Positions 3,485-64,000 of a stretch of 64,000 nt of DNA are shown piece by piece (within the stretch, counting starts at the first letter, position 1; each line of letters starts with the position of its first letter). The position numbers and the translations under genes were made by a program. The notes under the pieces were generated by a model that saw only the letters and a program-made list of their open reading frames with translations, was not told the DNA's origin and searched no databases. The stretch covers positions 175,463 through 239,462 of the forward strand of contig CAYGDX010000001.1 in NCBI GenBank assembly GCA_964348825.1. The letters run 5' to 3'. The DNA comes from an uncultured Gammaproteobacteria bacterium (GTDB lineage Bacteria; Patescibacteriota; Patescibacteriia; Veblenbacterales; UBA10138).

Positions 3485-3540
3485 TAAATTAAAATCCGAA
3501 ATTCGAATATCGAAATTCTAAATAAATTAATTTTATAAAA

Positions 3541-5023
<1,483 letters not shown>

Positions 5024-5261
5024 TGAGCCACTGACAACTAGTTCCTAGCCACTAATTTGTCTGCCCCGCGAAGCTTTAGCGAAGTGGGGTCATTGCGAGG
5101 TCCGCCAGCTGGCGGAGAGTGAGGCGAGCGACGTGGCAATCTATCACAAAAATCGAAATTTATTCATTAGAACACTAGAACATTTAAACATTATTGATAA
5201 AAATTTTTTGTTATTATGATCTAGTGATTTAGTGATCTAGTGATATTTCTTACTTAATCCA

Positions 5262-6120: not shown

Positions 6121-6201
6121 TAAGTTTTTTGTCATTCTGAGTCATCAGACGAAGAATCTTTAAGATTATTCGTTTCATTTGGGATAACAATTATTATACT
6201 T

Positions 6202-7011
6202 ATGCCTGTTCTACAAAACTTACGTACCGATGTAAATAAGTTAAAAAGTCCAGTCAAATCCAAGATTTTGCAAAGATTTTTTAAAACAGGTAAGGGTGAA
6301 TATGGAGCAGGGGATATATTTTTAGGATTAACTGTGCCAGAATCAAGATTAATTGCTAAAAAATACGCGTCTGTAATTAAAAATAGCGAATTAGAAAAAT
6401 TATTATCATCAAAGTATCATGAGGAGCGCTTGATTGCGCTCCTTATTTTAGTACAGAAGTTTAATTTGATATCAGCTGAGAGATTCCAATTGTCATCCCC
6501 GCGGAGGCGGGGATCCAGAAAAATAAGCCAGGTTAAATCAATTCTGGATTCCCACTTTCGTGGGAATGACAAAAACGCGGCTGTTAATCAGAAAAAAGTT
6601 GTGGATTTTTATTTAGCGCATCTCTCAGCCGTTAATAATTGGGATTTAGTTGATTTGTCGGCTGATAAAATTTTTGGACGATATTTGTTAGGCAAGTCAA
6701 CTAAAATTTTATACAAATTTATAAAGTCAAAAAATTTATGGGAGAGGCGGATTGCGATTGTATCTACTTTTGCTTTTATTAAACAAAATAAATTTACTGA
6801 CGCCTTACGTCTATCCAAAATATTATTAAAAGATAAACACGATTTAATTCACAAAGCGTGCGGTTGGATGCTCCGCGAAGTCGGCAAGCGTAATGTAGGC
6901 ATACTTTTAAAATTTTTAAATAAAAATAGTTCACAAATGCCTCGCACTATGCTCCGTTATGCAATTGAGCGACTACCGAAGAATAAAAAGAAATTTTATC
7001 TAGAAAAATAA
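6202..7011 (+). CDS. DNA alkylation repair enzyme (AlkD/AlkC-like HEAT-repeat protein) carrying a ~30-aa in-frame repeat-element insertion
   Basis: The N-terminus (…KLKSPVKSKILQRFFKTGKGEYGAGDIFLGLTVPESRLIAKKYAS…) and the C-terminal half (…WDLVDLSADKIFGRYLL…RRIAIVSTFAFIKQNKF…HDLIHKACGWMLREVGKRN) match the DNA_alkylation family. The central SSPRRRGSRKISQVKSILDSHFRGNDKNAAV is encoded by two inverted copies of the short palindromic repeat (6490..6520 and 6543..6572). Confidence 0.65.
   Translation: MPVLQNLRTDVNKLKSPVKSKILQRFFKTGKGEYGAGDIFLGLTVPESRLIAKKYASVIKNSELEKLLSSKYHEERLIALLILVQKFNLISAERFQLSSPRRRGSRKISQVKSILDSHFRGNDKNAAVNQKKVVDFYLAHLSAVNNWDLVDLSADKIFGRYLLGKSTKILYKFIKSKNLWERRIAIVSTFAFIKQNKFTDALRLSKILLKDKHDLIHKACGWMLREVGKRNVGILLKFLNKNSSQMPRTMLRYAIERLPKNKKKFYLEK
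6490..6572. repeat. Two inverted copies of the ~30 bp ATTCCC-N8-GGGAAT palindromic unit inserted in-frame in the alkylation-repair gene
   Basis: 6490..6520 reads tgtcatccccgcggaggcggggatccagaa. 6543..6572 reads ttctggattcccactttcgtgggaatgaca (reverse complement of the unit). Confidence 0.8.
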
Positions 7012-13465: not shown

Positions 13466-13719
13466 TACCCCACCTAACCCCGCCTCATCGGCGGACAAGC
13501 TCCCTATAATGTATTTTAGGAAGAAATTTTACTAAATTTGGCTATTAGTTAGCCATTTTTTAATATGTCTTTCCAACTTGTGGAATTATCTAAAAAATGT
13601 TAAACTAATAGTAGTTTTACAGTACTATTTTGGTTGTTTTTTATTTATATCTGGATTCCCGCTTTCGCGGGAATGACGGGTGTAAATGTTAACAGTTTTG
13701 AGTTTTAACTTTTTATATT

Positions 13720-14112
13720 GTGTCCTTAAAGTATTATCTATGGTGGATGACAGCCGGTACACTCGGGGCCTGGGCTGTTTTGTGGTTGGTAATGAAGTAT
13801 TTGGATCCTCAAAGTACTGGATTTTTAGGGCTTCTACTTTTTTACGTGGCAGTTTTTTTAAGTGTTACCGGCACCTTAACCATTTTCGGGTTTACTTGGC
13901 GCATGTTCCGATTTAAAGATGAAGTATTATTTCGTCATATGACACAGGCCTTCAGACAAGGCGCAATGTTGGCTCTTGTGGTAGTAGGTGCTTTATTTTT
14001 GGAAGCACAAAAACTTTTGACTTGGTGGAATTTGGGATTACTTATTTTAGGATTAACACTTTTGGAATTTTTTTGGTTGTCGGTTAAGAGAATGCCGCCG
14101 GCAGACGTTTAG
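13720..14112 (+). CDS. Hypothetical membrane protein
   Basis: 130 aa with 3 to 4 hydrophobic helices. No recognisable family. Confidence 0.4.
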   Translation: MSLKYYLWWMTAGTLGAWAVLWLVMKYLDPQSTGFLGLLLFYVAVFLSVTGTLTIFGFTWRMFRFKDEVLFRHMTQAFRQGAMLALVVVGALFLEAQKLLTWWNLGLLILGLTLLEFFWLSVKRMPPADV

Positions 14113-15242: not shown

Positions 15243-15403
15243 GTTACTTTTTATAAAGTAACACAAAATCTCCGCCTCGGTCTTCGGGTTTGAACAGTGC
15301 TCGTCAAACGAGCTGGCTCAAGCTATGCTAAGCGACCACAGACACGCTTGAGCCGGACGCTCGTTTGACTTCCGCTCTGTACAAACCCTACGACAGGGCG
15401 GCA
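15243..15403 (-). mobile_element. MITE-like repeat family 1, copy 1 (between pheS and pheT), inverted relative to the 37538 copy
   Basis: About 160 bp. The core is >80% identical to the copies at 37538, 54935 and 58508. It has ~30 bp imperfect terminal inverted repeats (cgccgccYtgtcgtagggtttgtacag … ctgttcaaacccgaagaccgaggcggcg) and a terminal palindromic hairpin (gttactttttataaagtaac). Confidence 0.65.
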
Positions 15404-15426
15404 CAACGACTAATTTAAATTACCTT

Positions 15427-20214: not shown

Positions 20215-20371
20215 AATTTAAATTTTTATACATACCAAAGTATTTGACAATTAATACTTGCTAAATCAAAAGTTAAAACTTAAAAGTCAAAATACGATTT
20301 ACAAATCAAAGATTTTTATTTTTTAGTTGTAGTTTTTAGTTTTTACTTTTGCGTTTTGAGTTAAGAACTAT

Positions 20372-23300
20372 ATGGAACGTGAATCTCCACCCATCAATCC
20401 ACAATATGAAAAATACCGCGTGGCGCTCGAGCGGTATTTGGCGCAGGCCTCACCCGAAGCTAAGGCCGAGGCCAAACGTTTGATTGAAGAAGAGAGAAGA
20501 TTGGAGCGGGTTGAAATTTTGCAAAAATTGCAAGATGGTCTTTTAGTGCTTAAAAATATTTCGGAAAACCAAAGAACTGATCATCAAAAATGGGTAGTTG
20601 GTGCTGTAGAAGGCGCTTTAGGTAAAATTGGTGATGATGGTAAATACGAAATAAAGGCAGGGGAAAATAGTCAACGCGAAGGCGTACCAGTGGATGGATT
20701 AATTAAAGAGTTAGAAGATTTTTGGCATCAAGCGGGCGCCCGGGCGCGCGAACTAGAAAACGAAGTACGCAGGTTAAGACAAAAACATAGTGATGTTTTA
20801 GCCAATTGGGTACGTGAGGGTGCGACCGATATTACTTCAGAGCATCAAATCAAAATGGCTTGGCAAGAGGTGGCGAGTGGTAGTTCAGTTGAAATAAAAA
20901 ATCAAGTAGATGCTACTCGCAAAACTTGGGCTACGGCGGGCGGTATAGGAGATGATTATGATCCAGCGACTGGTGAATATAAATTACAAAGCGGTGAAGC
21001 AATGCGTCAGTTGGTGGAAAATAAATTAGTTGGTGAAGTTAGGCAAGCCAAGAATAAAACTGATGCTTTAGGTGGCACGCGAGATTTTTTGATTGGTAAA
21101 AGTAAGGGATATTTTGAAGCACATCCAGAAATGAAAGGTGATAAGCAACATTGGCGCACCGAATACGAAGCTAAGTTTATTTCTCGTGACTTCCGTTCTA
21201 CTGGTGCAGTACAAACTGATTATGATAAAGCTATGGTAGAAATGTCGGCCCGGCGTGAATTAGTGCTACCGAATTTGAAAGTTGAATTACCAGAAGTTGT
21301 GCCCGTGGTAGTTGAACCAACTCCGGCGTCAGTTGAGCCAATATCACTTCAACCGGAAAAGCCAGAAGCCAAACGAGCGTATCTTATTAATGTTTCTGAA
21401 GTAGTTAAGCAGTATGCTCACCGACAAGCTGAATTACGTTTGAATGAATTACAAAAAGCTGAGGTGAAGGGTTTTTTCAAAACAATTGGCAGTGGCTTTA
21501 AGAAAATGTGGCTTAATTTAGGAGAAGAAGGGTATCGCCGTAAATTTGAGAAGGAAATTTTAACAGAAATTACAAGCAATAAAAATTTATTAGCTGAAAT
21601 TGAAGCACGTTTGGGTAAAAGTAAAAGTGCCACTACTTTAGAAAGCAAGGGATTGAATGAAAAGGTTTTAAGTGATGTAATTGATCGGTATCAAAAAGAA
21701 GTAGCCGAGGCTGAAGAAAAAGGTGAAGTAGTGGTGGATGCGCGGGTGAATCAAGAAGCCACAAAGTTATTTGTAGAATACGCCCAAGGTGCAATTACTA
21801 CGCGCGAGGAATTTGATAAACAAGTAGAAGAAAAAATTCTGCCACTGCTTGCTGGTCGTAAATTTACACTTGATTCAAATTACGCTAAGGAAGCTGAAAA
21901 AAATAAAAAAGATAAGATTGAAATGTATGCTAATAATTATTTTGAATTAGCTAAGAATTATAAAACATACATTGATAAAAAATTAGCTGAATACCCACCA
22001 GATCAGCGCGGCAAATTAATTGAACACTTGAAAGGCGAATTAGGTTTGGATTTGCAACTCGGGTTTATGCGTCGCGATTTAGAGGAAACTAAACCGCAAG
22101 AAGTTTTGAAATGGTACGACAAACTAGTTGATTTTACACAAAGTATTCCAATCATTAATAAAATTGTGGCTAATCCACTAGCTTATGGCATACTCGGCGG
22201 AGTAGCTGGTACTTTTGTGGGGCGTGGTGTTAAACGTTTTGCTGTTGGCAAGGGATTAATCGGTATTGCTGGTATGGCGCCGTGGCTCGCGCCGATAATT
22301 TTAGGTATGGGTTTTGGTGGAGCATATCTTTCGGCCCGTCGTTCACGTAATTTACAATATGATCGCGGTATGGATTTGCGTCGTAGAGCACTAGGCGCAG
22401 AAAGTGGTGGCGAGCGGACTGACAAAATGCGTGAATTTAATTATGGAATTAAACGCGCCGATGAAATTGTTTCGGCCTTGCAAGCGGTGCGAGCTAAATC
22501 TGGCTTAACTGATGCCGATAAAGAAATTTTAGGAGAAGTAATCGCCCGTTTTAAAGTAGAAAAAGAAAGATCAGTTGATTTAATTGGGGCTAATATTGAG
22601 GAAGGGTCTAAACACAAAACTAGAATTAAGAGTGTGACAGATGTTAAGTATTCATTAAAACAATCTTTAGAAAAATTTGGTTTGAAAGAATCAGATATTC
22701 AATCTTTTGTTGATAAACATTATAAAATTTTTATTGATGATATAGATAATAAAGACAAGTTGTTTAATAAATTTAGACATTGGGAAATGGGTAAAGCTGG
22801 CGTGATTGGCGCGACAATGGGTTTGGCCGGAGGTGCAGCTGGACAATATTTATGGGAACAAGGACAAGAATTATTTGGATTTACGCCAAAAACTGAAAGT
22901 GCCATTACTCATTTGATGCACTATATGAAAGGTGAGGGTAGTACCGCTTATGCTGGTGCGATGCAAGAAATTCCAATTGCGGCCTTAGGTGAAGCGGCGC
23001 ATCACCCCACTATTAAAATTCCACAAGGTTGGAGTTTATCCTCAGCGGGGGAAAGCAATCATTACGATTTAATTAATGCTGATGGTAATAAAGTTAGCGA
23101 TATAATTTTGAATTCCGACGGCACTTTGGATCAAGGAAGTTTGGATGAATTATCGGCTTCTGGTTTTAAAGTGAGTGATCAAGTGGAAACTGTTAGAACT
23201 AGTGTGCCAGATGCCACAGTACCAGCGGGCAAGGTGAATCCACTTGAGGCGTTTAAAGATCAGTTGGGTACACACCCACGAACTGATTGGCATGATGAAT

Positions 23301-26284
23301 TGGGTACGCGTTATAGTAAATTCTTTAATAAGTTGATTGAGTTTGAAGGTAAACAGCAAATGTTATATTTGGAAAAAGGTGCCGATGGCACAGTTTATAT
23401 TAATGCTGATAAAATTGCCCAGAATTTAGTAAAGAATGTTAATGAAGCGTTTGCTAAATTTGGCACTAACCCTGATGGAAGTCACGATTCTAAGTTACTA
23501 CATCTTAAAGAACAGTTAACAATGTGGGCTAGAAGTGGGGAGTTGCATAAACATTTGCAAGCCGCGATTATTCCAACCGAAAGTGCAAATCGGCAGGGCT
23601 TAAGTATGTTGGTTGATGGTGCGAGCGGTAATCATAAAATCGCTTTGCCACCGGGAATTTCTCGCCTTTTTACTACGCCAGAAAGTTTAAAGTATTTACA
23701 TCACCCTTTGCGTTATATAGAGTTGCGTCTTAATGGTCATACTTTAGCTACCAGTGTTGGCGGCGATATGCAAGCTGTAGCGCCTACGCCGATTGAAAAA
23801 ATTATAGAAACTCCGGTTCATCACACTGAAATTATCCCCACCGCGCATGACTTCGACGCACCACCAGTGTTACCATTTTATCCGAGGAAGGCGTTGGAGA
23901 GAACTCCAGAAAATCCTATTATATTGCCATATTATTTATATGGCGAAACAATGACACCAGAAAAAGAAGAACAAATAAGAAAACAATTATCAGAAACATT
24001 AAGGAGTAATCCCGACGCAAATTTGGATCATTATAAAGAAATTGAGGAGTATATTGGCAAATGGAATAGTGATTACCGTCAGGAAATAGAAAAGTTTGTG
24101 AGAGAAGTTGGCCCAATGAATGAAAAATGTCGTGTATCTGTTTGTATACCTGTAGCTGGTCACCAAGAGGGTAATAGTATTTACAAAACACTGGAAAATT
24201 ATTTAAATCAAACAATTGAGAAAGGAAATTTTGAAATAGTGTTATTTGTTAATCATCCTGAAAATGATGTAAATGGTAATAAAATTAGGCCGGATAATAC
24301 GCTGGAAGAAATAGAGCGTTTTAAAAAAGATTACCCGGGATTAAATGTTGTGACTATGTATAAATCTTTACCCTTGGAAGAGGTAAAGATTGGTTACATC
24401 AGGAAATTACTTAATGACACTGTATTAATGAGACATCATCAAAGAGGTAAGAGTGTTGAAGATTTAATAATTATTAGTAATAATGCTGATAATAAAGGTG
24501 TGGCGCCTGAATATATTAAAAATTTTGTTAATAAGTTTGATGAAAATTCTAATATTGATTCATATCTTGGTCAAGTGGATTGGGATCCAGAGGTTTATAT
24601 TAAAAATCCATTAGCTCATGTAGGGACTAGACTATTTCAATATATTAATATTCAAAATAGAAGCAAGGGTAGACACATTGAATCATCGGGTTGTAATTTT
24701 GCTCTAAGATCGAGTGTATATGCGGCAGTAGGTGGTTATGACGGTGAGGCGACACTAGGTGAAGATAATGAATTAGGTGCCGCAATTAAATATGGAAGAA
24801 AAAATGCCAGGGTTCACAAAGGTGTTGAATATGCTGGGGCAAGAGTTTCCAGAATATATTCATCCGCTAGAAGGATAGAGTATTCCCTAAAAAATGGGCT
24901 TTCACCTATAGAACAATGGGATAATGGTTTTAGTGCCTTTGATGATGAGGTTAGAAAAGTTAAATGGAATCTTAAGGGGAAGGCAATTGATTATGAAGAT
25001 GTGGATCAGGTAAAGTCTTTAATTAATGAGTTAGAAAATATTATTAATAGGACCATTAATAGAATGTCTAGTTGGGGTTTAGTATCCGACAGTCTAGTTT
25101 TTAAAAAATCTTTAGGTTGGTTGGGTATTAAATACGAAATGGTTGGCGACAAAAGAATAAAGATAATTAATGCTGATCGTTTGATTAGAGATTTAAAGGT
25201 GTATCAGAGTGATGGTTTATTGATAAGAGATTTGAAATTAGGTAAATCAGATGCCAAAGAAAAGTTGTCTAAATTGAAGAGTGAACGTAATATTGTTGAA
25301 AGTTCTGCATTAGAAAACAGATTAGTTGATTTTTACAAAAACGATCAGTTGATTTTGCATACTAATAGTGTTATTCCAAATCTAGACAAAATTAAAATCT
25401 CAGCAAATAAAAAAAAGGTGGGAGATATTTTGGTGGCTGATGATTTATCTATTTATAATGGAGATGATTCAAAAGTGTTAGCCGGTTATAAAGAGGGGGA
25501 AGATAAGGTTGTTATTCTTAAAGAAGTTGGAAGTAACACAATGATTAATCGTTTAGAAGAACAGGGCTGGTCAGGATATGGGTTAGAAGTGTCTAGTTTT
25601 GATAGTTATTTAAAGAAGAAGGGATTTTCAAATAAAAATGTTCTTTTAGCTGATGATGAGTTTTATGAAGTTAGTAAAAGTGGTTCACCTAAATTAGCAA
25701 GAATATATGAGCCGGCACTATCTGATTTACAAGGATTTTTAAATCGCGGTGGTAAATTAAGTATCAAAGAATCATTGTCAGTAATGATAAGAAGTTGTGA
25801 TGGAATCAATGGATTACATAAAAATAATATAGCTAATATAGATTTAGCACCATTAAACATTTTGGTTTTTAAAGATGGTATTAAAATTACTGATCTTGAC
25901 GGCTCCAGTATTTCTTCGGACGGTAATAAATTTATTAGAAAATCATTGGGATTAAATAGATTTATTTGTGCTCCAGAATTGTTTGGTAAGAATAATACTT
26001 TTGATAAGACAGTTGATGTATATGCGGCTGGTGCAAATTTATATTATCTTTTAACTGGTAAATGGCCTTATGATATTGATGCAGAGACAACAGGAATGAG
26101 TCGTGAAGAGGTCATGGATAAATATAAACCACTTCATATGTCTGGAAATATTGATATACCCTCTAACATACCAGTTGAATTGGGGCGTGTAATTAAAAAG
26201 GCCATGAGTCCTAATCCCACAGACAGATATCAAACTATCGAGGAATTAAATAATGAATTATTAAATATATACGAAAGTATTTAA
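20372..26284 (+). CDS. Giant multidomain membrane protein: N-terminal coiled-coil region, TM helices, GT2-family glycosyltransferase domain and C-terminal Hanks-type protein-kinase-like domain
   Basis: 1970 aa, uninterrupted.
- aa ~1-560 are Glu/Lys-rich coiled coil.
- Hydrophobic helices lie at about aa 598-653 (IVANPLAYGILGGVAGTFVG…GLIGIAGMAPWLAPIILGMGFGGAYL) and at about aa 807-826.
- aa ~1230-1520 have GT-A fold features (CRVSVCIPVAGHQEGNSI…EIVLFVNHPEND…SSGCNFALRSSVYAAVGGYDGEATLGEDNELG).
- aa ~1740-1970 carry kinase subdomains VIb to IX (NIDLAPLNIL as the catalytic loop, KITDLDGSS as a DFG-like motif, FICAPE as the APE motif, DVYAAGANLYYLLTGKWPY as subdomain IX).
- A hairpin plus T-run terminator follows at about 26371..26396. 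Confidence 0.8.
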   Translation: MERESPPINPQYEKYRVALERYLAQASPEAKAEAKRLIEEERRLERVEILQKLQDGLLVLKNISENQRTDHQKWVVGAVEGALGKIGDDGKYEIKAGENSQREGVPVDGLIKELEDFWHQAGARARELENEVRRLRQKHSDVLANWVREGATDITSEHQIKMAWQEVASGSSVEIKNQVDATRKTWATAGGIGDDYDPATGEYKLQSGEAMRQLVENKLVGEVRQAKNKTDALGGTRDFLIGKSKGYFEAHPEMKGDKQHWRTEYEAKFISRDFRSTGAVQTDYDKAMVEMSARRELVLPNLKVELPEVVPVVVEPTPASVEPISLQPEKPEAKRAYLINVSEVVKQYAHRQAELRLNELQKAEVKGFFKTIGSGFKKMWLNLGEEGYRRKFEKEILTEITSNKNLLAEIEARLGKSKSATTLESKGLNEKVLSDVIDRYQKEVAEAEEKGEVVVDARVNQEATKLFVEYAQGAITTREEFDKQVEEKILPLLAGRKFTLDSNYAKEAEKNKKDKIEMYANNYFELAKNYKTYIDKKLAEYPPDQRGKLIEHLKGELGLDLQLGFMRRDLEETKPQEVLKWYDKLVDFTQSIPIINKIVANPLAYGILGGVAGTFVGRGVKRFAVGKGLIGIAGMAPWLAPIILGMGFGGAYLSARRSRNLQYDRGMDLRRRALGAESGGERTDKMREFNYGIKRADEIVSALQAVRAKSGLTDADKEILGEVIARFKVEKERSVDLIGANIEEGSKHKTRIKSVTDVKYSLKQSLEKFGLKESDIQSFVDKHYKIFIDDIDNKDKLFNKFRHWEMGKAGVIGATMGLAGGAAGQYLWEQGQELFGFTPKTESAITHLMHYMKGEGSTAYAGAMQEIPIAALGEAAHHPTIKIPQGWSLSSAGESNHYDLINADGNKVSDIILNSDGTLDQGSLDELSASGFKVSDQVETVRTSVPDATVPAGKVNPLEAFKDQLGTHPRTDWHDELGTRYSKFFNKLIEFEGKQQMLYLEKGADGTVYINADKIAQNLVKNVNEAFAKFGTNPDGSHDSKLLHLKEQLTMWARSGELHKHLQAAIIPTESANRQGLSMLVDGASGNHKIALPPGISRLFTTPESLKYLHHPLRYIELRLNGHTLATSVGGDMQAVAPTPIEKIIETPVHHTEIIPTAHDFDAPPVLPFYPRKALERTPENPIILPYYLYGETMTPEKEEQIRKQLSETLRSNPDANLDHYKEIEEYIGKWNSDYRQEIEKFVREVGPMNEKCRVSVCIPVAGHQEGNSIYKTLENYLNQTIEKGNFEIVLFVNHPENDVNGNKIRPDNTLEEIERFKKDYPGLNVVTMYKSLPLEEVKIGYIRKLLNDTVLMRHHQRGKSVEDLIIISNNADNKGVAPEYIKNFVNKFDENSNIDSYLGQVDWDPEVYIKNPLAHVGTRLFQYINIQNRSKGRHIESSGCNFALRSSVYAAVGGYDGEATLGEDNELGAAIKYGRKNARVHKGVEYAGARVSRIYSSARRIEYSLKNGLSPIEQWDNGFSAFDDEVRKVKWNLKGKAIDYEDVDQVKSLINELENIINRTINRMSSWGLVSDSLVFKKSLGWLGIKYEMVGDKRIKIINADRLIRDLKVYQSDGLLIRDLKLGKSDAKEKLSKLKSERNIVESSALENRLVDFYKNDQLILHTNSVIPNLDKIKISANKKKVGDILVADDLSIYNGDDSKVLAGYKEGEDKVVILKEVGSNTMINRLEEQGWSGYGLEVSSFDSYLKKKGFSNKNVLLADDEFYEVSKSGSPKLARIYEPALSDLQGFLNRGGKLSIKESLSVMIRSCDGINGLHKNNIANIDLAPLNILVFKDGIKITDLDGSSISSDGNKFIRKSLGLNRFICAPELFGKNNTFDKTVDVYAAGANLYYLLTGKWPYDIDAETTGMSREEVMDKYKPLHMSGNIDIPSNIPVELGRVIKKAMSPNPTDRYQTIEELNNELLNIYESI

Positions 26285-27818: not shown

Positions 27819-28154
27819 AGCCCGAAAGTGAGTGAATAGTTTCACTCACGTGCCGTGAGGCGGGCAAGCCGATGCCTGTGGCCGGATTGCCCCGGGACGT
27901 AAATTTGGTATTAATTTAGAGCTCATGCGCCTAATGTCATTGCGAGTCCGAGCGTCAAGCACGAGGGCGAAGGAATCTACCAAAATCACTAATGGCTAAT
28001 TTCTAATTTCTAAAAAATTCCAATCCGCCAGCTGGCGGACCAATATCCAAAATTTAGTTATTAGACATTAGTCATTTTTAGAAATTATTTATTAGAGATT
28101 AGAAATTTATAGTTTTTAGGATTTTGACATTTGAAATTTTAATATAACTTAATC

Positions 28155-28205: not shown

Positions 28206-28889
28206 ATGTCTAAACGAGGTAAGAAATATGTTGAAGCTGTGAAATTGGTTCAAGTGGGCAAGGCCTATGAACCGAGTGAGGCTGTGAAGTTACTCAAGCA
28301 AATGCCAGCACGAAAGTTTGATATGTCGGTGGAAGTGCATATGAAGCTGGGGGTAGATGTAAAACAAGCTAATCAACAAGTGCGTGGTAGCACAGTATTA
28401 CCACACGGTTTGGGTAAAACCAAGCGCGTGGCAGTTTTTTGTGAAGATGCCAAAGCTTCGGAAGCCAAAGCCGCTGGAGCAACTATTGTTGGCGGTGAAG
28501 AATTAATTAAAGAAATTCAAACTACCGGCAAATGTGATTTTGATGTCGCAGTAGCCACGCCTGAAATTATGAAAAAAATGGCACCGATTGCAAAAATTTT
28601 AGGTCAAAAAGGTTTAATGCCTAATCCTAAAACTGAAACTATCACGAATGATATTGCTAAAACAGTAGAAAATTTGAACAAAGGTAAGGTGAGTTTTAAA
28701 ACCGATGCCACTGCTAATATTCACCAAATGATTGGTAAAATTTCGTTTGATGAGCAGAAAATTTTGGAAAATTTTAATGCCTTGCTTGAAGTAGTGCGCC
28801 GCGTTAAACCAGCTGGCGCTAAGGGTATTTATATTCGCAGTTGTACTTTAAATGTTTCAATGGGACCGGGGATTAGAGTGAAAGTATAG
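28206..28889 (+). CDS. rplA: 50S ribosomal protein L1
   Basis: 227 aa (…KFDMSVEVHMKLGVDVKQANQQVRGSTVLPHGLGK…). Confidence 0.95.
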   Translation: MSKRGKKYVEAVKLVQVGKAYEPSEAVKLLKQMPARKFDMSVEVHMKLGVDVKQANQQVRGSTVLPHGLGKTKRVAVFCEDAKASEAKAAGATIVGGEELIKEIQTTGKCDFDVAVATPEIMKKMAPIAKILGQKGLMPNPKTETITNDIAKTVENLNKGKVSFKTDATANIHQMIGKISFDEQKILENFNALLEVVRRVKPAGAKGIYIRSCTLNVSMGPGIRVKV

Positions 28890-28920
28890 TTGGCAAATAG
28901 CTAATAGCAAATGGCAAATA

Positions 28921-28950
28921 GATAGGCGTCATTCCCGCGTAGGCGGGAAT
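28921..28950 (+). repeat. Short palindromic unit (gtcattcccgcgtaggcgggaatctagaa) just downstream of rplA
   Basis: One of about 10 copies. Others lie at 13651..13680 (inverted), 54889..54922, 56503..56531, 57344..57375, 58213..58278 (with an internal insertion), 62143..62172, 63643..63672 (inverted) and two inside 6490..6572. The stem is ATTCCCGC/GCGGGAAT with a variable 4-5 nt loop and compensatory changes (cccac/gtggg). Confidence 0.8.
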
Positions 28951-28954
28951 CTAG

Positions 28955-29085
28955 AAACTAAAATTTCAAATGACAAATGTCAAATTTCAAATCAAATCCA
29001 AAATTATAATGTTAAAATTTTTAATCATTTAGTCATTTGACATTGATTTGTTATTTGGATTTTGACATTTGAAATTAAATACTTC
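28955..29085. repeat. Intergenic word repeat family D (atttcaaatgtcaaat / tttgacatttgaaat) upstream of dcd
   Basis: Built from ttgacatttgaaat words in both orientations. Related copies lie at 28120..28140, 62225..62285 and 63560..63600. Confidence 0.7.
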
Positions 29086-29141
29086 TAAACAGTTGAATAT
29101 TTAGTCATAGTGTAATATCATTAAAATGCTTAAATATTTTA

Positions 29142-29717
29142 TTGACTAAACAAATGATTCTCTCTGATCGTGATATTAAAGTCGCCATTGCCGATGGCAA
29201 AATAAAAATTGAACCGCTTTATGATGGTGCACTTCAACCCGCTTCAGTCGATTTACATTTGGGTACGAAATTTTTGATTTTTAGAAATTCAGAGCACGCT
29301 TTTATTGATGTTCGTGAGCCAATTGCTAATTTAATGGAAGAAGTGGAAATCTCGGGTGATAAGCCATTTATTATTCATCCCGGTGAATTTGCTTTAGGTG
29401 TAACTGTAGAAAAAGTTACCTTATCAGCCGATATGGTGGGGCGACTAGAAGGTAAATCTTCGCTTGGCCGAATTGGTATTATTATTCATGCCACCGCTGG
29501 GTTTATTGACCCAGGTAATTCACTTAAGCCAACTTTAGAACTTCACAATATTGGGAGTTTACCAGTGAAGCTTTATGCAGATATGCCGATTGCGCAAATT
29601 GCTTTTATGCCGCTATCCTCACCAGCCGAAAATACTTATGGTAAGGGGCGAAAATATTTTGGCGCGGAAATTCCGCAGGCCAGTAAAATGCACGAGAATT
29701 TTAAAAAACCTAGCTAG
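29142..29717 (+). CDS. dcd: dCTP deaminase
   Basis: 191 aa (MILSDRDIKVAIADGKIKIEPLYDGALQPASVDLHLG…). Dcd/Dut superfamily with a Dcd-type N-terminus. Confidence 0.88.
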   Translation: MTKQMILSDRDIKVAIADGKIKIEPLYDGALQPASVDLHLGTKFLIFRNSEHAFIDVREPIANLMEEVEISGDKPFIIHPGEFALGVTVEKVTLSADMVGRLEGKSSLGRIGIIIHATAGFIDPGNSLKPTLELHNIGSLPVKLYADMPIAQIAFMPLSSPAENTYGKGRKYFGAEIPQASKMHENFKKPS

Positions 29718-29737
29718 TTACTAGGTTTTATTTTATT

Positions 29738-30295
29738 ATGAAAGGTGGAATGAAAATTATTAGTATAATTGGTGAACCGCTCTCGGGAAAAAAGACCGTT
29801 ACTGATTTTTTGGTAAAGAAATATGGATATAAACAGTTTACTTATTCTGATTTATTGACTAGTATTTTAAAGATTTTGAATTTACCGTTAATTCGTCCCA
29901 ATTATGCCAATTTAGCAATAGCACTAAGGGAAAGATTTGGCGGTAGTATTTTATCTCAAGTATTGTTAGATAAGGCTAAGAGTAAAAAATTGAAAAAGAT
30001 TATTTTAGATGGGGCTAGGCATCGAGCAGAGGTTGATTATCTAAGAAAGATGCCGGGTTTTATTTTAATTTATGTTACCGCCTCAACGAAGGTTAGGTAT
30101 TTGAGATCAATTAAGCGCAGGGAGAAATCGAATGAGGGTAAGATGACTTTTAAAGAATTTAAAAAGGAAGGCCGTTTGGCTACTGAACTAGAATTTAAAC
30201 ATATGAGTAAGGGAGCAATTAAAATTGTTAACAACGGCACATTGCGCGATTTAGAAAAACTGCTCAATCAAAAAATGTTAAATAATTTAAGATGA
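29738..30295 (+). CDS. P-loop nucleoside/(deoxy)nucleoside monophosphate kinase-like protein
   Basis: 185 aa. Walker A at the N-terminus (IISIIGEPLSGKKTVTDFLVKKYGYKQFTYSDL) and a later DGARH segment, reminiscent of dNMP-kinase/adenylate-kinase-like folds. Placed between dcd and dut. Ends in TGA. Confidence 0.5.
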   Translation: MKGGMKIISIIGEPLSGKKTVTDFLVKKYGYKQFTYSDLLTSILKILNLPLIRPNYANLAIALRERFGGSILSQVLLDKAKSKKLKKIILDGARHRAEVDYLRKMPGFILIYVTASTKVRYLRSIKRREKSNEGKMTFKEFKKEGRLATELEFKHMSKGAIKIVNNGTLRDLEKLLNQKMLNNLR

Positions 30296-30347
30296 TTAAT
30301 AAAACATAAGTAAAAAATTAGATCTAAAAAATCAAATTACTAAAATT

Positions 30348-30785
30348 ATGCTAGAAGCAATTGTTCTTGAAGTCAAAAAACTTGACCCCCGCGCCAAATT
30401 ACCCGCCTACGTTTACGAGGGTGATGCAGGGTTGGATTTTTTTTGCTTAGATGATTGTACTGTGCCGGCGGGCAAGCGTTTGGCCGGAATTCGCACTGGC
30501 ATGGCCATTGCCATTCCGGAAGGGTATGTAGGCCTATTTTGGGATAAATCAGGCCTAGCGGCTAATTTTGGGCTTAAGGTAATGGCTGGCGTGATAGATG
30601 CAGGTTACAGAGGTGAAATTAAGCTAACGTTATTTAATACTAGTACCGAGGATTACAATTTCAAAGCCGGTGATAAAGTAATGCAAATGTTGGTGCAAGC
30701 TGTGGAAAGAGTGGAAGTAGAAGAAGTAAAAGTGTTATCTCCCTCAATCCGTGGCGAGGGTGGTTTTGGGAGTACTGGAAAATAA
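30348..30785 (+). CDS. dut: dUTP diphosphatase
   Basis: 145 aa with the five Dut motifs (AGLDFF…, GLFWDKSGLA, VIDAGYRGEI, C-terminal GGFGSTG). Confidence 0.9.
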   Translation: MLEAIVLEVKKLDPRAKLPAYVYEGDAGLDFFCLDDCTVPAGKRLAGIRTGMAIAIPEGYVGLFWDKSGLAANFGLKVMAGVIDAGYRGEIKLTLFNTSTEDYNFKAGDKVMQMLVQAVERVEVEEVKVLSPSIRGEGGFGSTGK

Positions 30786-30838
30786 AAATCCCCTCTGACG
30801 TTAAAAGGGGATTTGTTGTTTTTAATGATTCAACAATT

Positions 30839-31735
30839 TTATGATGGAGATACAAGATCTTTATAACAAAGAAACCGTTGGATAATTTTAGCCAAATTTA
30901 ACCCGACTTTTTCCGCTTCTTCAGTGACTTCGTTTTCGGTTGCCGGATTTAATTTTCCACTATTTGATAAGATATTAGTGATTATAGAAAATCCAACTAC
31001 TGGTATTTTGAAACTGGCAGCAACCTTGGCTTCTGGTATGACTGACATTCCAACTGCGTCGCAACCACTTTGTTTCAAGAATTCTATTTCGGTTTGATTT
31101 TCATAGCATGGTCCGGTTACAGCGACTAAGATACCTTGTTGAAGTATAAATCCTAGTTCTTTAGCAGATATGTAAGCAATACCGCTTAGGTGATAGTTAT
31201 ACAGATTTGAAGTATCAGGGAACCTTACAGTGTTGGGAAAAAGAGGGCCAATTAATGGGTCGGGTATGAAAAATGAATTATGGTTACGGACCAACATTAT
31301 ATCGCCGACTTTGTAGTTAGGGTTGATACCACCAGTGGCATTAGTGGTTACGACAAGTTTGACGCCCAACCAAAGTAGTGTTCGGAGTAAAAAGGTAACT
31401 TCAAACATTGAGTAACCTTCGTAACAATGAAACCGTCCGACCATGGCCACCACATTTTTTTCACCCAATTGACCGAAAACTAATTTTCCATTTTCGTGTT
31501 GTGGTGCGGTTGGTGTAGGGCAGTGTGGGATATCTTTATAAAAGATTTCCAGTGGATTTTTAATTTCATTAGCTAATACACTTAATCCTGTGCCACAGAT
31601 GATGACTATATTAGGCAGAGGAAGTGCCACTCTTAATTCACAGTGGGTTTCAAGTTCAGGATCAAGCTGTTTTTTTATAAATAAACCCGCTTCTCCAACC
31701 TTTGTTAATTGTTCTTTAGAAGATAAATATTGCAT
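30839..31735 (-). CDS. Purine nucleoside phosphorylase / MTA phosphorylase family (trimeric PNP-I type)
   Basis: 298 aa. Trimeric-PNP signature GRFHCYEGY, plus VTTNATGGIN and AVGMSVIPEA. Confidence 0.8.
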   Translation of the reverse strand: MQYLSSKEQLTKVGEAGLFIKKQLDPELETHCELRVALPLPNIVIICGTGLSVLANEIKNPLEIFYKDIPHCPTPTAPQHENGKLVFGQLGEKNVVAMVGRFHCYEGYSMFEVTFLLRTLLWLGVKLVVTTNATGGINPNYKVGDIMLVRNHNSFFIPDPLIGPLFPNTVRFPDTSNLYNYHLSGIAYISAKELGFILQQGILVAVTGPCYENQTEIEFLKQSGCDAVGMSVIPEAKVAASFKIPVVGFSIITNILSNSGKLNPATENEVTEEAEKVGLNLAKIIQRFLCYKDLVSPS

Positions 31736-31832
31736 TGTTAAGTTCCTATATTGTGATTTGTGGTTTTATTGATTTTTTAGTATCTTATAACTAGCTGGTT
31801 TAATTGTCAATCTTTCAATTTACGAAGCTAAT

Positions 31833-32705
31833 ATGAAAACCTATTTAGATATTGTAAAAAACGTTTTGGAAAATGGAGAAAAAGTTGCCACACGGCAAGG
31901 TACTCCCGCCTATACCATTGCTGGTGCTATGTTTGAACACGACATGTCAAAAGGTTTTCCACTACTCACCACAAAAAAAGTGCCGTTTCGTTTGATTGCC
32001 ACAGAATTAGAATTTTTTATAAATGGTATTACTGATAAAAAATGGCTTATCGATCGTAATAATCATATCTGGGATGAATGGGCTAGTCCTACCAAAGCGC
32101 CTTATGGACATGATGAAATTTCAAAACAGAGAATGCTTGCCGAGCGCGACTTAGGGCCGATTTATGGTTTTCAGTGGCGACATTTTAATGCGCCTTACGA
32201 AAATTATGATTCAGATTATACAGGTAAGGGAATAGATCAATTAAAAAAAATAGTTGAAACATTAAAAACAAATCCACGCGATAGGCGAATGATTGTAAAT
32301 GCTTGGAACCCTCTACAGCTAGCAGAAATGGGTTTGCCACCATGCCATTACTCTTTTCAAATTACAACCATAGGCAATAAACTTAATTTAATGTGGAACC
32401 AGCGTTCAGTGGATACTATGCTCGGACTACCTTTTAATATAGCAAGCTATGCTTTGCTCCTGCATCTTCTAGCCAAAGAAACTGGTTTTGAAGAAGGTAA
32501 GTTGGTTGGCTTTTTGGCTGATGTGCATATTTTTGAAAATCATACAGATGGTGCCAAAGAACAGCTATCTCGGGATCCTGTCAAATACCCATTACCAAAA
32601 ATAGAAACTACTAATTGGGAATCAATTTATAATTGGAAGGCCGAGAATACAAAACTTTTAGATTACCAAAGTTATGATAAAATTCCATTTCAAATAGCTA
32701 TTTAG
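31833..32705 (+). CDS. thyA: Thymidylate synthase (ThyA-type)
   Basis: 290 aa. R…TGT motif, DLGPIYGFQWRHF, catalytic PPCHYSFQ and LGLPFNIASYALL (Asn at the dUMP-specificity position). Carries an insertion relative to E. coli ThyA. Confidence 0.9.
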   Translation: MKTYLDIVKNVLENGEKVATRQGTPAYTIAGAMFEHDMSKGFPLLTTKKVPFRLIATELEFFINGITDKKWLIDRNNHIWDEWASPTKAPYGHDEISKQRMLAERDLGPIYGFQWRHFNAPYENYDSDYTGKGIDQLKKIVETLKTNPRDRRMIVNAWNPLQLAEMGLPPCHYSFQITTIGNKLNLMWNQRSVDTMLGLPFNIASYALLLHLLAKETGFEEGKLVGFLADVHIFENHTDGAKEQLSRDPVKYPLPKIETTNWESIYNWKAENTKLLDYQSYDKIPFQIAI

Positions 32706-32713
32706 CCATTACT

Positions 32714-33235
32714 ATGACTTTTTCAATTATTGCCGCGGTGGATAAGAATATGGGGATTGGGCTTAAAAATGCTCTGCCGTGGCGCCTAAAGGGCGATATG
32801 GATCATTTTAAGCAGATTACGGTAAATACTGCCTCGGGTAAGCAAAACGCGGTTATAATGGGGAGCAATACTTGGGCTTCATTACCGGAAAAATTTAGAC
32901 CACTGCCCGAACGTTTAAATTTAGTATTAAGCTTCCAACCACTTGATTTACCAGCGGGAGTTTTGTTTGGTAGTTCGCTTGATAATGCGCTTGAACAATT
33001 AAGTAGTCGCTCTGATATTAATGAAATTTTTGTGATTGGTGGTGCTCGAGTTTATGCCGAAGCAATTAATCATCCAGCTTGCGTAAAAATTTATTTAACT
33101 GAGATTGATAAGGTCTTTGAATGTGATACTTTTTTTTCAAAATTGCCTGATAAATTTAAATTAGTGGAATCATCTGCGTTAGTAAAAGAGGGTGATATAT
33201 CATACTTATTTAATCGTTACGATTTGATTAATTAA
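32714..33235 (+). CDS. folA: Dihydrofolate reductase
   Basis: 173 aa (IIAAVDKNMGIGLKNALPWRLKGDMDHFKQIT…VIMGSNTWASLP…VIGGARVY). Confidence 0.88.
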   Translation: MTFSIIAAVDKNMGIGLKNALPWRLKGDMDHFKQITVNTASGKQNAVIMGSNTWASLPEKFRPLPERLNLVLSFQPLDLPAGVLFGSSLDNALEQLSSRSDINEIFVIGGARVYAEAINHPACVKIYLTEIDKVFECDTFFSKLPDKFKLVESSALVKEGDISYLFNRYDLIN

Positions 33236-37437: not shown

Positions 37438-37537
37438 TACCCAGTTTTTTGCGAGGCAAAACTGGGTTTATTTTTATTTTGTCATTTCCATGTCATTCGA
37501 CATCAAGCTCATAACCTAGAGGAAAACGGGGAACCGT

Positions 37538-37698
37538 GCCGCCCTGTCGTAGGGTTTGTACAGAGCGCAAGGCAGACGAACGTCCGACTCGCCCGTGTTT
37601 GTGGTCGCTTGGCATAGGGCGAGTCAGTTCGTCTGACGAGCACTGTTCAAACCTGGAGACCGAGGCGGCGATTTTGTGTTACTTTATAAAAAGTAACA
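37538..37698 (+). mobile_element. MITE-like repeat family 1, copy 2 (between the Cys-rich ORF and miaA)
   Basis: Same element. It generates the spurious ORF 37536..37781, whose translation MPPCRRVCTERKA… recurs in the 58508 copy. Confidence 0.65.
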
Positions 37699-37806
37699 AA
37701 ATAAAAAATAATCTTAATTCCCACCATAGCGGGGCAAGTTGGATTCTCGTTTCTCTCCTTCGTTATAAAGTTACGGAGTGACAAGTTGTGAATACGGCAG
37801 TGCAGT

Positions 37807-53564: not shown

Positions 53565-53620
53565 AATAATCTAGATTTTAACTTATAATCAGAGTTAATA
53601 TCAAATTAGTGCCGCCCTTG

Positions 53621-53813
53621 TCTCCGGGTTTGTACAGAGCGCCTGCCTACCGGTAGGCAGGCAAGGCAAATGAGCGTTCGGTCAGGCCGTGCTGTGGTCG
53701 CTGTGCATAGGCCGAGCCAGCTCGTTTGACGAGCACTGTTCAAACCCGAAGACCGACCTGCCTACCGGCAGGCAGGGGCGGCGACTCTTGCACCACTTCT
53801 CTAGAGAAGTGGT
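53621..53813 (+). mobile_element. MITE-like repeat family 1, copy 3 (prmC-prfA spacer), subfamily with a ...cttctctagagaagtggt terminal hairpin and two cctgcctaccggtaggcagg palindromes
   Basis: Terminal inverted repeats and core shared with the other copies. It carries the 20-bp palindrome cctgcctaccggtaggcagg at about 53648 and 53760. That palindrome also occurs alone at about 56640. Confidence 0.6.
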
Positions 53814-53827: not shown

Positions 53828-54892
53828 TTAATGATTCTCTTTTTTTAGCTCTTCAATCACAAGCTCTAAACCACCTTCCATAATATTCGGTAAATTGTGG
53901 AAGTTTTGATTTATTCGATGATCAGTTAGGCGGTCTTGCGGGAAGTTGTAAGTGCGGATTTTTTCAGAGCGCTCACCACTGCCAATTTGAGAGCGGCGTG
54001 AGGCGTCGCGTGCACTATGTAATTGCTCTTGCTTGAGCGCGAGTAATCGTGAACGTAGAACAATCATAGCTTTTTCTTTATTTTGTTTTTGGGAACGTTC
54101 GTCTTGACATTGTACTGTTAAACCAGTTGGCAAGTGTACAATACGAATGGCCGAGTAAGTAGTATTAACTGATTGTCCGCCGTGTCCTGAAGCAGTGTTG
54201 GCTTCAATTTTTAAATCTTCTGGTTTAATTTCCATATCTATTTCATCGGCTTCGGGGAGTACTGCCACCGTCACAGTTGAAGTGTGTACTCGACCATTTT
54301 TTTCAGTATCAGGCACACGTTGTACGCGGTGCACGCCGCTTTCGTATTTTAAATCAGAGTATACGCGGCGTCCGGTTATTTCCAAAGTAATATCTTTAAA
54401 ACCGCCGACATCATTACGGCTGGAATCAATAATTTGCACTTGCCATTTTTTACTTTCAGCGTACCGTGTATACATACGATACAAATCAGCCGCGAAAAGC
54501 GCGGCTTCGTCGCCACCAGTGCCACCGCGTATTTCCATAATGATATTTTTACCGTCCATTGGATCAGATGGTTCAAGGAGCTCCCTTAACTCGGCGTTTA
54601 TTTTGGCTAAATGAGTGGTGGTTTTTATATTTTCTTCAACAATCATATTTTTCATTTCAGCTTCAGTTTCGTTTTTAGCAGATGATTCCAAATGTTCAAG
54701 CTCTTGCATTAAATTTTTTCTTTTTTCTGCCAAATCCAAAATCTCCCGTACCGAGGTGTACTCGCGGTTTAGTTGGGTCAGCAAGGGTTGGTTGGTAAGC
54801 GTATCGGCTTGTGCAAGTTTGGCTTCTAGTTCAGCTTGCCTTTCCTCTAGGGTGATAAGTTTTTGGTCGATATTGGTCATAATCGTTGTCAT
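53828..54892 (-). CDS. prfA: Peptide chain release factor 1
   Basis: 354 aa. GGQ motif ([11 protein letters not shown]) plus RF1-type domains. Confidence 0.95.
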
Positions 54893-54922
54893 TCCCGCGT
54901 AGGCGGGAATCCAGAAAATTAA
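54889..54922 (+). repeat. Short palindromic unit immediately upstream of the prfA start
   Basis: ttgtcattcccgcgtaggcgggaatccagaaaat. Confidence 0.8.
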
Positions 54923-54934: not shown

Positions 54935-55101
54935 TTTTGTCACTTCTTTAATAGAAGTAACCAAGAATCGCCGCCTCGGTCTTCGGGTTTGAACAGTGCT
55001 CGTCAAACGAGCTGGTTCGGGCTATGCACAACTACCACAGACACGCCCGAACCGGACGCTCATTTGCCTTGCGCTCTGTACAAACCCTACGACAGGGCGG
55101 C
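54935..55101 (-). mobile_element. MITE-like repeat family 1, copy 4 (upstream of prfA)
   Basis: Inverted orientation. Preceded by an acttct-ttaat-agaagt hairpin. Generates the spurious ORF 54929..55111. Confidence 0.6.
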
Positions 55102-55300
55102 ACTGTTTTAGGAATTGGGATTTTTAATAATTTGGATTTATTTAGGATTTAGGGTTTTAGATTTAGGATTTTTAGAAACAAAACTCTTTCTAAACCCTTG
55201 TCCTTACTAATTAACTCTACCATATTTATAGTGATAAAAGCGAAACCAAATACAATACTCCCGCTCGCAATTAAAAAAAGGAGCGGGAGTAGAATAGTGC

Positions 55301-56491: not shown

Positions 56492-56502
56492 TTTTATAAC
56501 TG

Positions 56503-56531
56503 TCATTCCCGCGGAGGCGGGAATCCAGAAA
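56503..56531 (+). repeat. Short palindromic unit downstream of rpsB
   Basis: tgtcattcccgcggaggcgggaatccagaa. Confidence 0.8.
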
Positions 56532-56710
56532 CATAAATCCTAAATCCTAATATCTAAACTCTAAATAAATCCCAATAACTAAAATCCAAAAAAGTTTTAA
56601 ACATTTGAATTTTAGATTTATTTCGGATTTCGCCTGCCTGCCGGTAGGCAGGGATTTAGTGCTTCGGATTTAAACACCATTGATTTAAAATTATAAATTT
56701 AAAATTTAAT

Positions 56711-57325: not shown

Positions 57326-57478
57326 GAGTCTAGAGTAAGAGTATTGTGTCATTCCCGCGTAGGTGGGAAGCTATTAATTTAAAAATTAAAAATCAAAATG
57401 GAAAATGACAATGTAAAATGAAAAATTTTAAATTTTAATTTGTCATTTTTATTTTTGATATTTACATTTTGATTTTTT

Positions 57479-58212: not shown

Positions 58213-58278
58213 TGTCATCCTCGCGGCTTGTCCTGCCGTAGCTTGTAGCGAAGGAGGAAGGCGGGAATCCAGAAGACT
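58213..58278 (+). repeat. Short palindromic unit variant with a ~30 bp internal insertion, downstream of pyrH
   Basis: tgtcatcctcgcgg…[cttgtcctgccgtagcttgtagcgaaggaggaa]…ggcgggaatccagaag. Confidence 0.6.
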
Positions 58279-58507: not shown

Positions 58508-58669
58508 TGCCGCCCTGTCGTAGGGTTTGTACAGAGCGCAAGGCAAATGAGCGTCCGGCTTGGGCGTGTCTGTGGTCGCTTCGCATAGCCCAAGCCAGCT
58601 CGTTTGACGAGCACTGTTCAAATCCGAAGACCGAGGCGGCGATTTTATGTTACTTTATAAAAAGTAACA
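58508..58669 (+). mobile_element. MITE-like repeat family 1, copy 5 (downstream of pyrH)
   Basis: About 90% identical to copy 2, including the gttactttataaaaagtaac terminal hairpin. Generates the spurious ORFs 58507..58734 and 58384..58614. Confidence 0.65.
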
Positions 58670-58834
58670 AAAGAAGAGTTATCCACACCCTTGACATAAA
58701 AAACAGCCGGAGTATATTATGTATTATCCACTAAAGTTAGGAAAAAGAACGACCTATCTGAAACATTTACAAATAATCGTAATGAGTGGAATAATCAACA
58801 ATCGTTCTTTAACAAATAATATAGGAGATTTGTT

Positions 58835-62142: not shown

Positions 62143-62172
62143 TCATTCCCGCGAAAGTGGGAATCTAGAAAT
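62143..62172 (+). repeat. Short palindromic unit downstream of gap
   Basis: ttgtcattcccgcgaaagtgggaatctagaaa. Confidence 0.8.

Positions 62173-63629: not shown

Positions 63630-64000
<371 letters not shown>

Follow-up and report, generated by a model that had tools for sequence, protein, structure and literature searches.

Dispersed hairpin units in a genome from the candidate phyla are, by their sequence, copies of the NTS/dRS3 repeat (Ssn-related motif)

A short palindromic unit recurs at about ten positions in a 64-kb stretch of DNA (the window) from a contig of 469 kb, and the question is whether these hairpins arose locally, to serve the mRNAs in which they lie, or whether they belong to a repeat family that is already known. 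The original prediction favoured the former. It described the units as REP-like hairpins of the mRNA-stabilising or insulating kind, with a likeness to the Neisseria dRS3 repeat at the level of the pattern only. Judged by their sequence, the units are instead copies of the NTS/dRS3 repeat (Ssn-related motif, SRM) that is known across many bacterial groups, here found in a groundwater bacterium of the candidate phyla, and they are not hairpins that arose locally for mRNA stabilisation. Among the proteins encoded in the window, Tsf is 95% identical to a protein of a "Patescibacteria group bacterium" and 74% identical to one from Kerfeldbacteria, and the close relatives come from Hainich groundwater. 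It is likely, in our judgement, that the units are DNA-level NTS/SRM elements of uncultured Patescibacteria (CPR) with SsnA-type recognition, dispersal and turnover.

When read together with their flanks, all ten positions cited in the original prediction hold a repeat unit. Nine of the units are clear and one is expanded. They have the form TGTC-ATTCCCGCGNAGGCGGGAAT-CYAGAA, for which the chance expectation is none, and the consensus of the asymmetric unit is TGTC-ATTCCCGCG-N-AGGCGGGAAT-CYAGAA. Seven units lie on the plus strand and three on the minus strand, as follows.

6491-6518 (+) and 6544-6571 (-): unit pair, an inverted tail-to-tail doublet with a 25-nt spacer, in frame in the AlkD-like gene 6202-7011
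13651-13678 (-): single unit with the exact NTS consensus, about 40 nt upstream of the ORF 13720-14112
28927-28954 (+): single unit, the copy flagged in the original prediction, 38 nt past the rplA stop, with one mismatch to NTS
54887-54914 (+): single unit, 9 nt upstream of the true start of prfA, which is on the minus strand
56501-56528 (+): single unit, 10 nt past the rpsB stop
57347-57374 (+): single unit, 22 nt past the tsf stop, with a G-T wobble and a degenerate 3' flank
58213-58274 (+): expanded unit, 27 nt past the pyrH stop, consisting of GTCATCCTCGCG, a 32-nt loop insertion and AAGGCGGGAATCCAGAA
62141-62168 (+): single unit, 21 nt past the gap stop, with a G-T wobble
63642-63669 (-): single unit between pgk and eno, 175 nt beyond the stop of the former and about 40 nt ahead of the start of the latter

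The core pattern ATTCCC-N8-GGGAAT is present in seven exact copies in the window, against 0.00 expected from dinucleotide-preserving shuffles, and in eight copies with at most one mismatch, against 0.14 expected. The published SRM search pattern has four matches, against 0.02 expected from shuffles. Eight of the nine independent loci are intergenic (p = 3e-6, with 84% of the window coding). The identities of the neighbouring genes rplA, prfA, rpsB, tsf, pyrH, gap and pgk were confirmed, and most of the unit-bearing intergenic regions border translation, glycolysis or ATP-synthase genes (rplA, rplK, rpsB, tsf, gap, pgk/eno, atpD, prfA). The earlier statement that eight of the ten copies lie within about 30 bp of gene ends can be upheld in part. 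The distance to the preceding stop codon is 10-38 nt for five units (rplA, rpsB, tsf, pyrH, gap), and one more unit lies 9 nt before the true prfA start, but the unit ascribed to pgk is 175 nt away, and those at 6491 and 6544 lie inside an ORF. An in-frame ATG at 54892, upstream of prfA, is spurious and comes from the GTCAT of the unit 54887-54914; the prfA ORF of a closely related sister genome has 350 aa.

The NTS (Neisseria Transformation Sequence) was described by Chenal et al. (Nat Commun 2025, PMC11893778) as a longer, oriented repeat that is behind about half of the dRS3 copies, and the degenerate Ssn-related motif was found to be present in many phyla. That work was based on RefSeq reference genomes, and Patescibacteria are absent from its text (PMC11893778). 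We assigned sequences to the NTS/SRM family if they had at most one mismatch to the 28-nt NTS consensus CGTCATTCCCGCGMAVGCGGGAATCYRG or matched the degenerate SRM pattern. With respect to this consensus, one unit of the window is exact (13651-13678), one has a single mismatch (28927-28954), four have two mismatches and one has three. The exact 29-mer GTCATTCCCGCGNAGGCGGGAATCYAGAA is found in at least 120 stretches of species-representative genomes of 30-73% GC, among them Neisseria, Rickettsia, Pseudomonas, Sphingomonas, Desulfobacterales, Dehalococcoidia, Planctomycetes, Omnitrophota and at least 13 metagenome-assembled Patescibacteria genomes, and also in 31 viral-contig stretches. The sequence around the 29-mer is unrelated among these loci. 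Since a 29-mer that includes the flanks is common to unrelated genomes, the resemblance to dRS3 reflects membership of one sequence family. The description of a likeness at pattern level only was thus too cautious, as the identity to NTS/SRM extends to the non-palindromic flanks.

The window units share with NTS/SRM the same oriented sequence of 28-30 nt, the hairpin, the invariant GTC and 3' C, and the occurrence as dispersed or clustered units and doublets. They differ from it in several respects. They reside in a Patescibacteria (CPR) bacterium with a small genome, their loops read GTAG, GGAG, GAAA and AAAA as against the consensus GMAV, a second GTCAT-anchored family is present alongside and replaces the first at orthologous sites, one doublet lies in frame inside a gene, and ssnA was not found in the 64 kb of the window. 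The dRS3 (or NIME) repeat of Neisseria, reportedly described by Parkhill in 2000, has the form ATTCCC-N8-GGGAAT. This 20-bp core is identical in seven window units, and the mosaic intergenic regions with other repeat families are a further likeness. However, the window units do not flank RS repeats of 50-150 bp in arrays, and they belong to a host of another phylum with a genome of 37% GC. In the window, an architecture like that of the RS arrays is limited to one pair (6491-6571) with a unique 25-nt spacer, and all other units are single. The single units adjoin AT-rich repeats that also occur without units.

Two further occurrences of the family are recorded here as observations. The exact 29-mer, together with an inverted partner, is present in a metagenome-assembled 3.8-kb contig that is binned as a Nanoarchaeota (DPANN) archaeon (L037), which reflects either spread across domains or a binning error. 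Moreover, related IMG/VR phage contigs (L004/L020, L013, L021, L024, L026/L029, L028, L033) carry several exact SRM units between structural genes.

The units all form hairpins of 8 bp, with folding energies of about -11 to -16 kcal/mol. In an alignment of the nine units of the window, 98.6% of the stem cells pair, compared to 15-57% in slid-register controls, in agreement with the predicted conservation of the stem. The compensatory substitutions to which this conservation had been attributed are present in two pairs, with one compensated change each, but five of the eight pairs are invariant and two cells are G-T wobbles. The loop had been thought to vary freely. In oriented units it is GTAG (three times), GGAG (twice), GAAA (three times) or AAAA (once), and thus follows a GNAR-like pattern; the loops "ctttc" and "cttttg" reported earlier are GAAAG and CAAAAG in reverse, because three of the copies lie in reverse-complement orientation. 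In nine of the nine aligned units, no variation is seen in the unpaired GTCAT or in the C directly 3' of the stem.

These unpaired bases acquire a meaning from the biochemistry of the Neisseria enzyme SsnA, a single-domain GIY-YIG protein of 94 aa (PMC11893778). SsnA binds NTS as single-stranded DNA only, and only one of the strands, and cuts a few nucleotides upstream, whereas double-stranded DNA and RNA are not acted upon. For binding, the C that directly follows the palindrome matters most, and for cleavage the three bases upstream of the palindrome. Alteration of the stem sequence with retention of the hairpin abolishes the activity. The strand-specific binding and cleavage of single-stranded DNA have been demonstrated for the Neisseria and Wolbachia enzymes only (PMC11893778). 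The determinants of SsnA cleavage and binding, GTC and the 3' C, are the same non-pairing positions that are invariant in the window units. The proposal that selection acts on the hairpin and not on the sequence is therefore difficult to maintain, in view of the identical 29-mers in unrelated phyla, the unpaired GTC and 3' C among the invariant bases, and the loss of SsnA activity in the Neisseria stem variants that retain a hairpin.

With respect to other classes of structured repeats, the earlier statement that no T-run follows the units holds, apart from one weak pattern match at 57352. A reading as Rho-independent terminators was rejected, since there is no U-tract and the units are followed by CYAGAA(A). 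A CRISPR-like reading was rejected as well, because the copies, which resemble type I-E repeats in size and shape, are dispersed and often inverted and do not form a spacer array. A search of the whole window against Rfam at gathering thresholds identified no family, and no tRNAs were found either. The term REP-like is apt as a description, in the sense that the units are dispersed palindromes, located for the most part outside genes, with a real hairpin but without the character of intrinsic terminators.

The architecture of the family was assessed in 251 units from 120 loci elsewhere. Tail-to-tail doublets with the GTCAT outward and a median gap of 30 nt account for 128 of the units, and 30 are in head-to-head pairs; there are seven same-strand tandem pairs, and 92 units are single. 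In 384 units anchored by GTC...C, the stem variants are mostly fully compensated. The compensated variants ATTCCCAC/GTGGGAAT and ATCCCCGC/GCGGGGAT were each found 12 times, and it is these two variants that form the doublet in the window. As they recur throughout the family, the "compensatory substitutions" of the window are widespread subfamily variants instead of local repairs. Mispairs of the G-T and A-C kinds occur in the family in similar numbers (21 versus 16, p = 0.5), and this lack of strand asymmetry fits a DNA palindrome and not an RNA-only hairpin.

REPINs are inverted doublets of a repeat. Such doublets dominate across the family, and in the window they are represented by one case among the nine loci. 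A reading of the units as REP or REPIN elements, mobilised by a REP-associated tyrosine transposase (RAYT), would follow the proposal of Bertels and Rainey for the same 21-mer in Neisseria, where the REPIN master sequence ATTCCCGCGCAGGCGGGAATC, which is this motif, has a link to a Group 2 RAYT. In general, the REP/BIME and REPIN-RAYT systems (Nunvar 2010; Ton-Hoang 2012; Bertels and Rainey) are similar in their short extragenic palindromes, often in inverted pairs and usually downstream of genes, and in the repeat-flanked single-copy gene for a protein that is specific to single-stranded DNA hairpins. However, the protein that is associated with SRM units is a GIY-YIG nuclease and not a Y1 transposase of the HUH type. 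No Y1 transposase (Y1_Tnp) is present among the scanned ORFs of the window, no RAYT-like cluster was found among the unit-adjacent ORFs of about 150 loci, and a tblastn search with a RAYT query gave no match, which is a weak test. We know of no experiments on a RAYT that acts on this motif, whereas for SsnA they exist. Altogether, mobilisation by a RAYT appears quite unlikely.

The link to a GIY-YIG nuclease was drawn from the neighbourhood of the units in other genomes. When the ORFs within 200 nt of a unit, from about 150 loci, were clustered without bias, GIY-YIG proteins were the sole recurrent non-phage family besides a generic ABC-type ATPase. In three loci (L040, L070, L119) from genomes with the identical 29-mer, a gene with a Pfam GIY-YIG match is bordered by units on either side. 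An SsnA-like protein (37% identity, E = 7e-21) is also encoded in a locus from a metagenome-assembled Patescibacteria genome (L092), and its gene is flanked by hairpins of the second family (GTCGTTGCGAG...GCAAC; L092:60-130 and 440-480). A gene for a GIY-YIG protein or SsnA was not found in the 64-kb window, either by tblastn or by a Pfam scan of the ORFs of at least 80 aa (minus a few already identified as ATP-synthase, ribosomal and nucleotide-metabolism genes), nor was it found in about 36 kb of sister-genome loci. The 64 kb contain no ssnA, RAYT or IS110 gene, so that the partner enzyme of this genome, a cognate Ssn protein that would be encoded by it and would act on these copies, is inferred. 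If the Ssn link is true, an ssnA homolog that is flanked by GTCATTCCCGCG or GTCATTGCGAG units is expected in the genome.

The phage context of some units might suggest a different kind of partner. As dRS3 does for the Nf prophages of Neisseria, the units would then serve as attachment or target sites of IS110/Piv-type recombinases, which would belong to filamentous phages or to IS1111-like insertion sequences. The citation of dRS3 as a phage recombinase target (PMC11893778) is consistent with this, and so are five provirus calls of 43-50% GC (L007, L008, L014, L023, L032) with a unit at most about 200 nt from a contig end. Among the scanned ORFs of the window, however, there is no integrase, IS110 or phage gene, and a recombinase would account for the use of existing copies, but not for their origin or spread. 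As an explanation for the units, it is very improbable.

The behaviour of the units over short evolutionary distances can be followed in a sister genome (GCA_964360795.1; loci L235 and L236) that was reached through protein searches and is about 90% identical to the window (86-93% in coding DNA). The unit upstream of prfA is not present in the sister, where an adjacent GC-rich element of 149 nt is missing too, and the sister also lacks the unit after gap. At the sites that follow rpsB and tsf, a GTCATTGCGAGG...GCAATC (GTCATTGCGAGG...GCAATCTC) hairpin takes the place of the unit in the sister, with the same GTCATT and AATC anchors around a different interior. After pyrH, the sister unit is uninterrupted (GTCATCCTCGCGAAGGCGGGGCTC), as opposed to the 32-nt loop insertion in the window. 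The unit between pgk and eno is kept, with the loop AAAA in the window and GAAA in the sister, and the doublet in the AlkD-like gene is kept as well. Only the sister has an NTS-type unit with a 24-nt loop insertion between atpC and the DoxX gene, where the window has no unit. In a relative whose Tsf is 72% identical, intergenic DNA is almost lacking, and units are absent. In a metagenome scan, no units were found in 670 kb of loci around RpsB relatives of at most 52% identity, which are too distant for a test of insertion polymorphism. The gain, loss and replacement between the window and its sister indicate that the units are repeats at the DNA level that turn over.

The hairpins that stand in place of NTS-type units at orthologous sites of the sister are members of a second family with the GTCAT anchor (GTCATTGCGAGG...GCGACGWRGCAATCTC), in which the interior varies. 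This family had not been listed in the original prediction. Its members, and a related hairpin, are located as follows.

5089-5141 (+): second-family unit, GTCATTGCGAGG...GCAATC, after atpD
6131-6158 (+): hairpin GTCATTCTGAGTCATCAGACGAAGAATC, related and likewise anchored by GTCAT, 11 nt past the DoxX stop
27936-27977 (+): second-family unit, degenerate, after rplK
L236:9447, 10459 and 17580, L235:146 and 7827, and L092:60-130 and 440-480: second-family units elsewhere

The doublet at 6491-6571 is exceptional in that it is part of a coding sequence. The ORF 6202-7011 encodes a DNA alkylation repair protein of the AlkD type, whose match to Pfam DNA_alkylation falls into two parts. The doublet has a folding energy of -45.4 kcal/mol (z = -7) and is translated as ...QLSSPRRRGSRK...SHFRGNDK.... 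AlkD homologs of about 230 aa do not have roughly residues 91-129, which correspond to the site of the doublet. In the sister (L235), the doublet and its near flanks are 100% identical over 99 nt, whereas the whole gene is 87.8% identical, and the chance of 99 identical nucleotides at 12% divergence is about 3e-6. The identity over 99 nt, compared to a divergence of about 12% in the flanking coding sequence, points to a constraint beyond passive insertion. Two AlkD homologs (P0017 and P0005, 54-57% identical) have different GTCAT-anchored tail-to-tail doublets at the same codon position, and another indel is common to both of them and to the AlkD protein of the window. The insert is either one old insertion with later replacement of the stem, or the result of recurrent insertion at a hot spot.

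Different GTCAT-anchored palindromic doublets, in frame and at the same loop position, were noted in AlkD-like genes of several lineages (window 6202-7011; L240:887-1678; L241:1454-2257). In-frame insertion of palindromes has a precedent in the Rickettsia palindromic elements (RPE), which have a length of 100-150 bp and insert in frame into coding genes without destroying them. The doublet in the AlkD-like gene is similar in being an in-frame palindromic repeat within a gene. The RPE are of other sequence and, with 100-150 bp, of other size than the window insert, which is an 81-nt doublet of SRM units.

The position of the units relative to the neighbouring genes also has to be considered in the light of a function in RNA. 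The units could be RNA elements, selected by the host in the 3' UTRs or between the cistrons of highly expressed genes, which block 3'-to-5' exonucleases or insulate the cistrons, in the manner of E. coli REP. The five units at 10-38 nt past a stop codon are all in the sense orientation (5/5), and inclusion of the second family raises the count to 8/8. Elsewhere, 10 of 11 stop-proximal single units are in the sense orientation and start-proximal units have no bias, with the reservation that the count outside the window rests on crude ORF calls and may be subject to ascertainment bias. The stability of the hairpins, the proximity of most unit-bearing intergenic regions to translation, glycolysis and ATP-synthase genes, and the presence of a hairpin, though a different one, after rpsB and tsf in the sister all agree with a role in RNA. 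However, local selection on RNA cannot account for an identical 29-mer in unrelated phyla or for the invariance of the unpaired flanking bases. The prfA and gap sites are without a unit in a genome of about 90% identity, three units are antisense to the neighbouring gene, and two are inside a coding sequence. The sense strand has no excess of wobbles of the G-U type, and a 100-130-nt AT-rich hairpin is already present in every intergenic region, regardless of the unit. The same pattern of sense orientation would result from a mechanism for single-stranded DNA if it acted, in heavily transcribed genes, on the non-template strand that is displaced. In view of these data, it is unlikely that the units are RNA elements in the first place.

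The replacement of units by hairpins of the second family may suggest a more specific scenario, in which the GTCAT-anchored hairpins of this CPR lineage would be exchangeable cassettes at fixed sites. An undescribed, Ssn-driven copying would home into existing hairpin sites, and some copies would have been co-opted. The GTCAT...ATC anchors would stay, and the stem-loop between them would be swapped, as after rpsB and after tsf, or diversified; the loop would be interrupted, as after pyrH and at L235:779. The different doublets at one codon position of the AlkD homologs of 54-57% identity would belong here too. The homing would be driven by an Ssn-type nuclease for single-stranded DNA, possibly on the displaced non-template strand of highly transcribed genes, and action on this strand would explain the bias for the sense orientation. 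The doublet in the AlkD-like gene, unchanged over 99 nt, would be an example of co-option by the host. We regard the exchange of cassettes as possible, but doubtful.

For the preferred reading, as NTS/SRM elements with SsnA-type recognition, the following course of events can be envisaged. The unit strand, when present as single-stranded DNA, would fold into the 8-bp hairpin, which, together with the GTC upstream of it and the C that follows the stem, would be recognised by a small GIY-YIG nuclease with a single domain (SsnA, family cd10448). By analogy with the Neisseria and Wolbachia enzymes, the nuclease would bind the hairpin and cut a few nucleotides upstream. Copies, many of them in inverted doublets, would build up at sites of little harm to the host, namely in intergenic regions just after stop codons or before start codons, and in one permissive loop of AlkD. 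Their turnover over short evolutionary distances would consist of gain, loss, insertions into the loop, and replacement at the same site by a different hairpin with the GTCAT anchor. An effect of the transcribed hairpin on mRNA 3' ends is possible, but would be secondary, either as a by-product or as a later co-option.

The window contains other repeats and features that deserve mention. A GC-rich repeat of about 140 nt is present in six copies (15256-15404 on the minus strand, 37537-37704, 53616-53756, 54955-55103 on the minus strand, 58508-58675 and 60126-60354). It folds as one long rod, with 57 consensus pairs, eight of which have compensated changes among four copies. An AT-rich hairpin comes next after four of the six copies, and the copy at 60126 is interrupted. 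Comparison to Rfam gave no match at threshold for this repeat, the sole match being to COG2908 RNA with 13 bits. It may be a MITE or a multicopy structured RNA. Nearly every intergenic region, with or without an SRM unit, has an AT-rich imperfect inverted repeat of 100-130 nt (for example 3485-3655, 20215-20371, 28955-29141, 56530-56710, 62170-62294 and 63468-63640). These inverted repeats are built of words with a period of about 7 nt, such as AAATCCG, AAATCCT, TAGAACA and similar ones, and may be generic terminators or insulators of this genome. The ORF 20372-26284 encodes a protein of 1970 aa, for which a C-terminal Ser/Thr protein kinase domain (residues 1784-1959) is the sole Pfam match. 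In the region 28206-33235, rplA is not followed by rplJ, but by a nucleotide-metabolism block with dcd, a dNMP-kinase-like gene, dut, a PNP/UDP-type phosphorylase gene (on the minus strand), thyA and folA.

The identification of the units as Ssn-related motifs replaces a plausible guess, that of locally evolved REP-like mRNA hairpins. With the partner protein of SRM, a family of site-specific nucleases restricted to single-stranded DNA has been described for the first time. The abundance and fast turnover of SRM in Patescibacteria, which have minimal genomes and depend on DNA uptake, widen the known range of the system. The window and its sister, at about 90% identity, are a natural comparison in which gain, loss, loop insertion and replacement in place are all visible, and which bears directly on the question of how these repeats multiply. 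Finally, the doublet in the AlkD-like gene, which is more conserved than the gene around it, shows that such repeats can become fixed parts of proteins.
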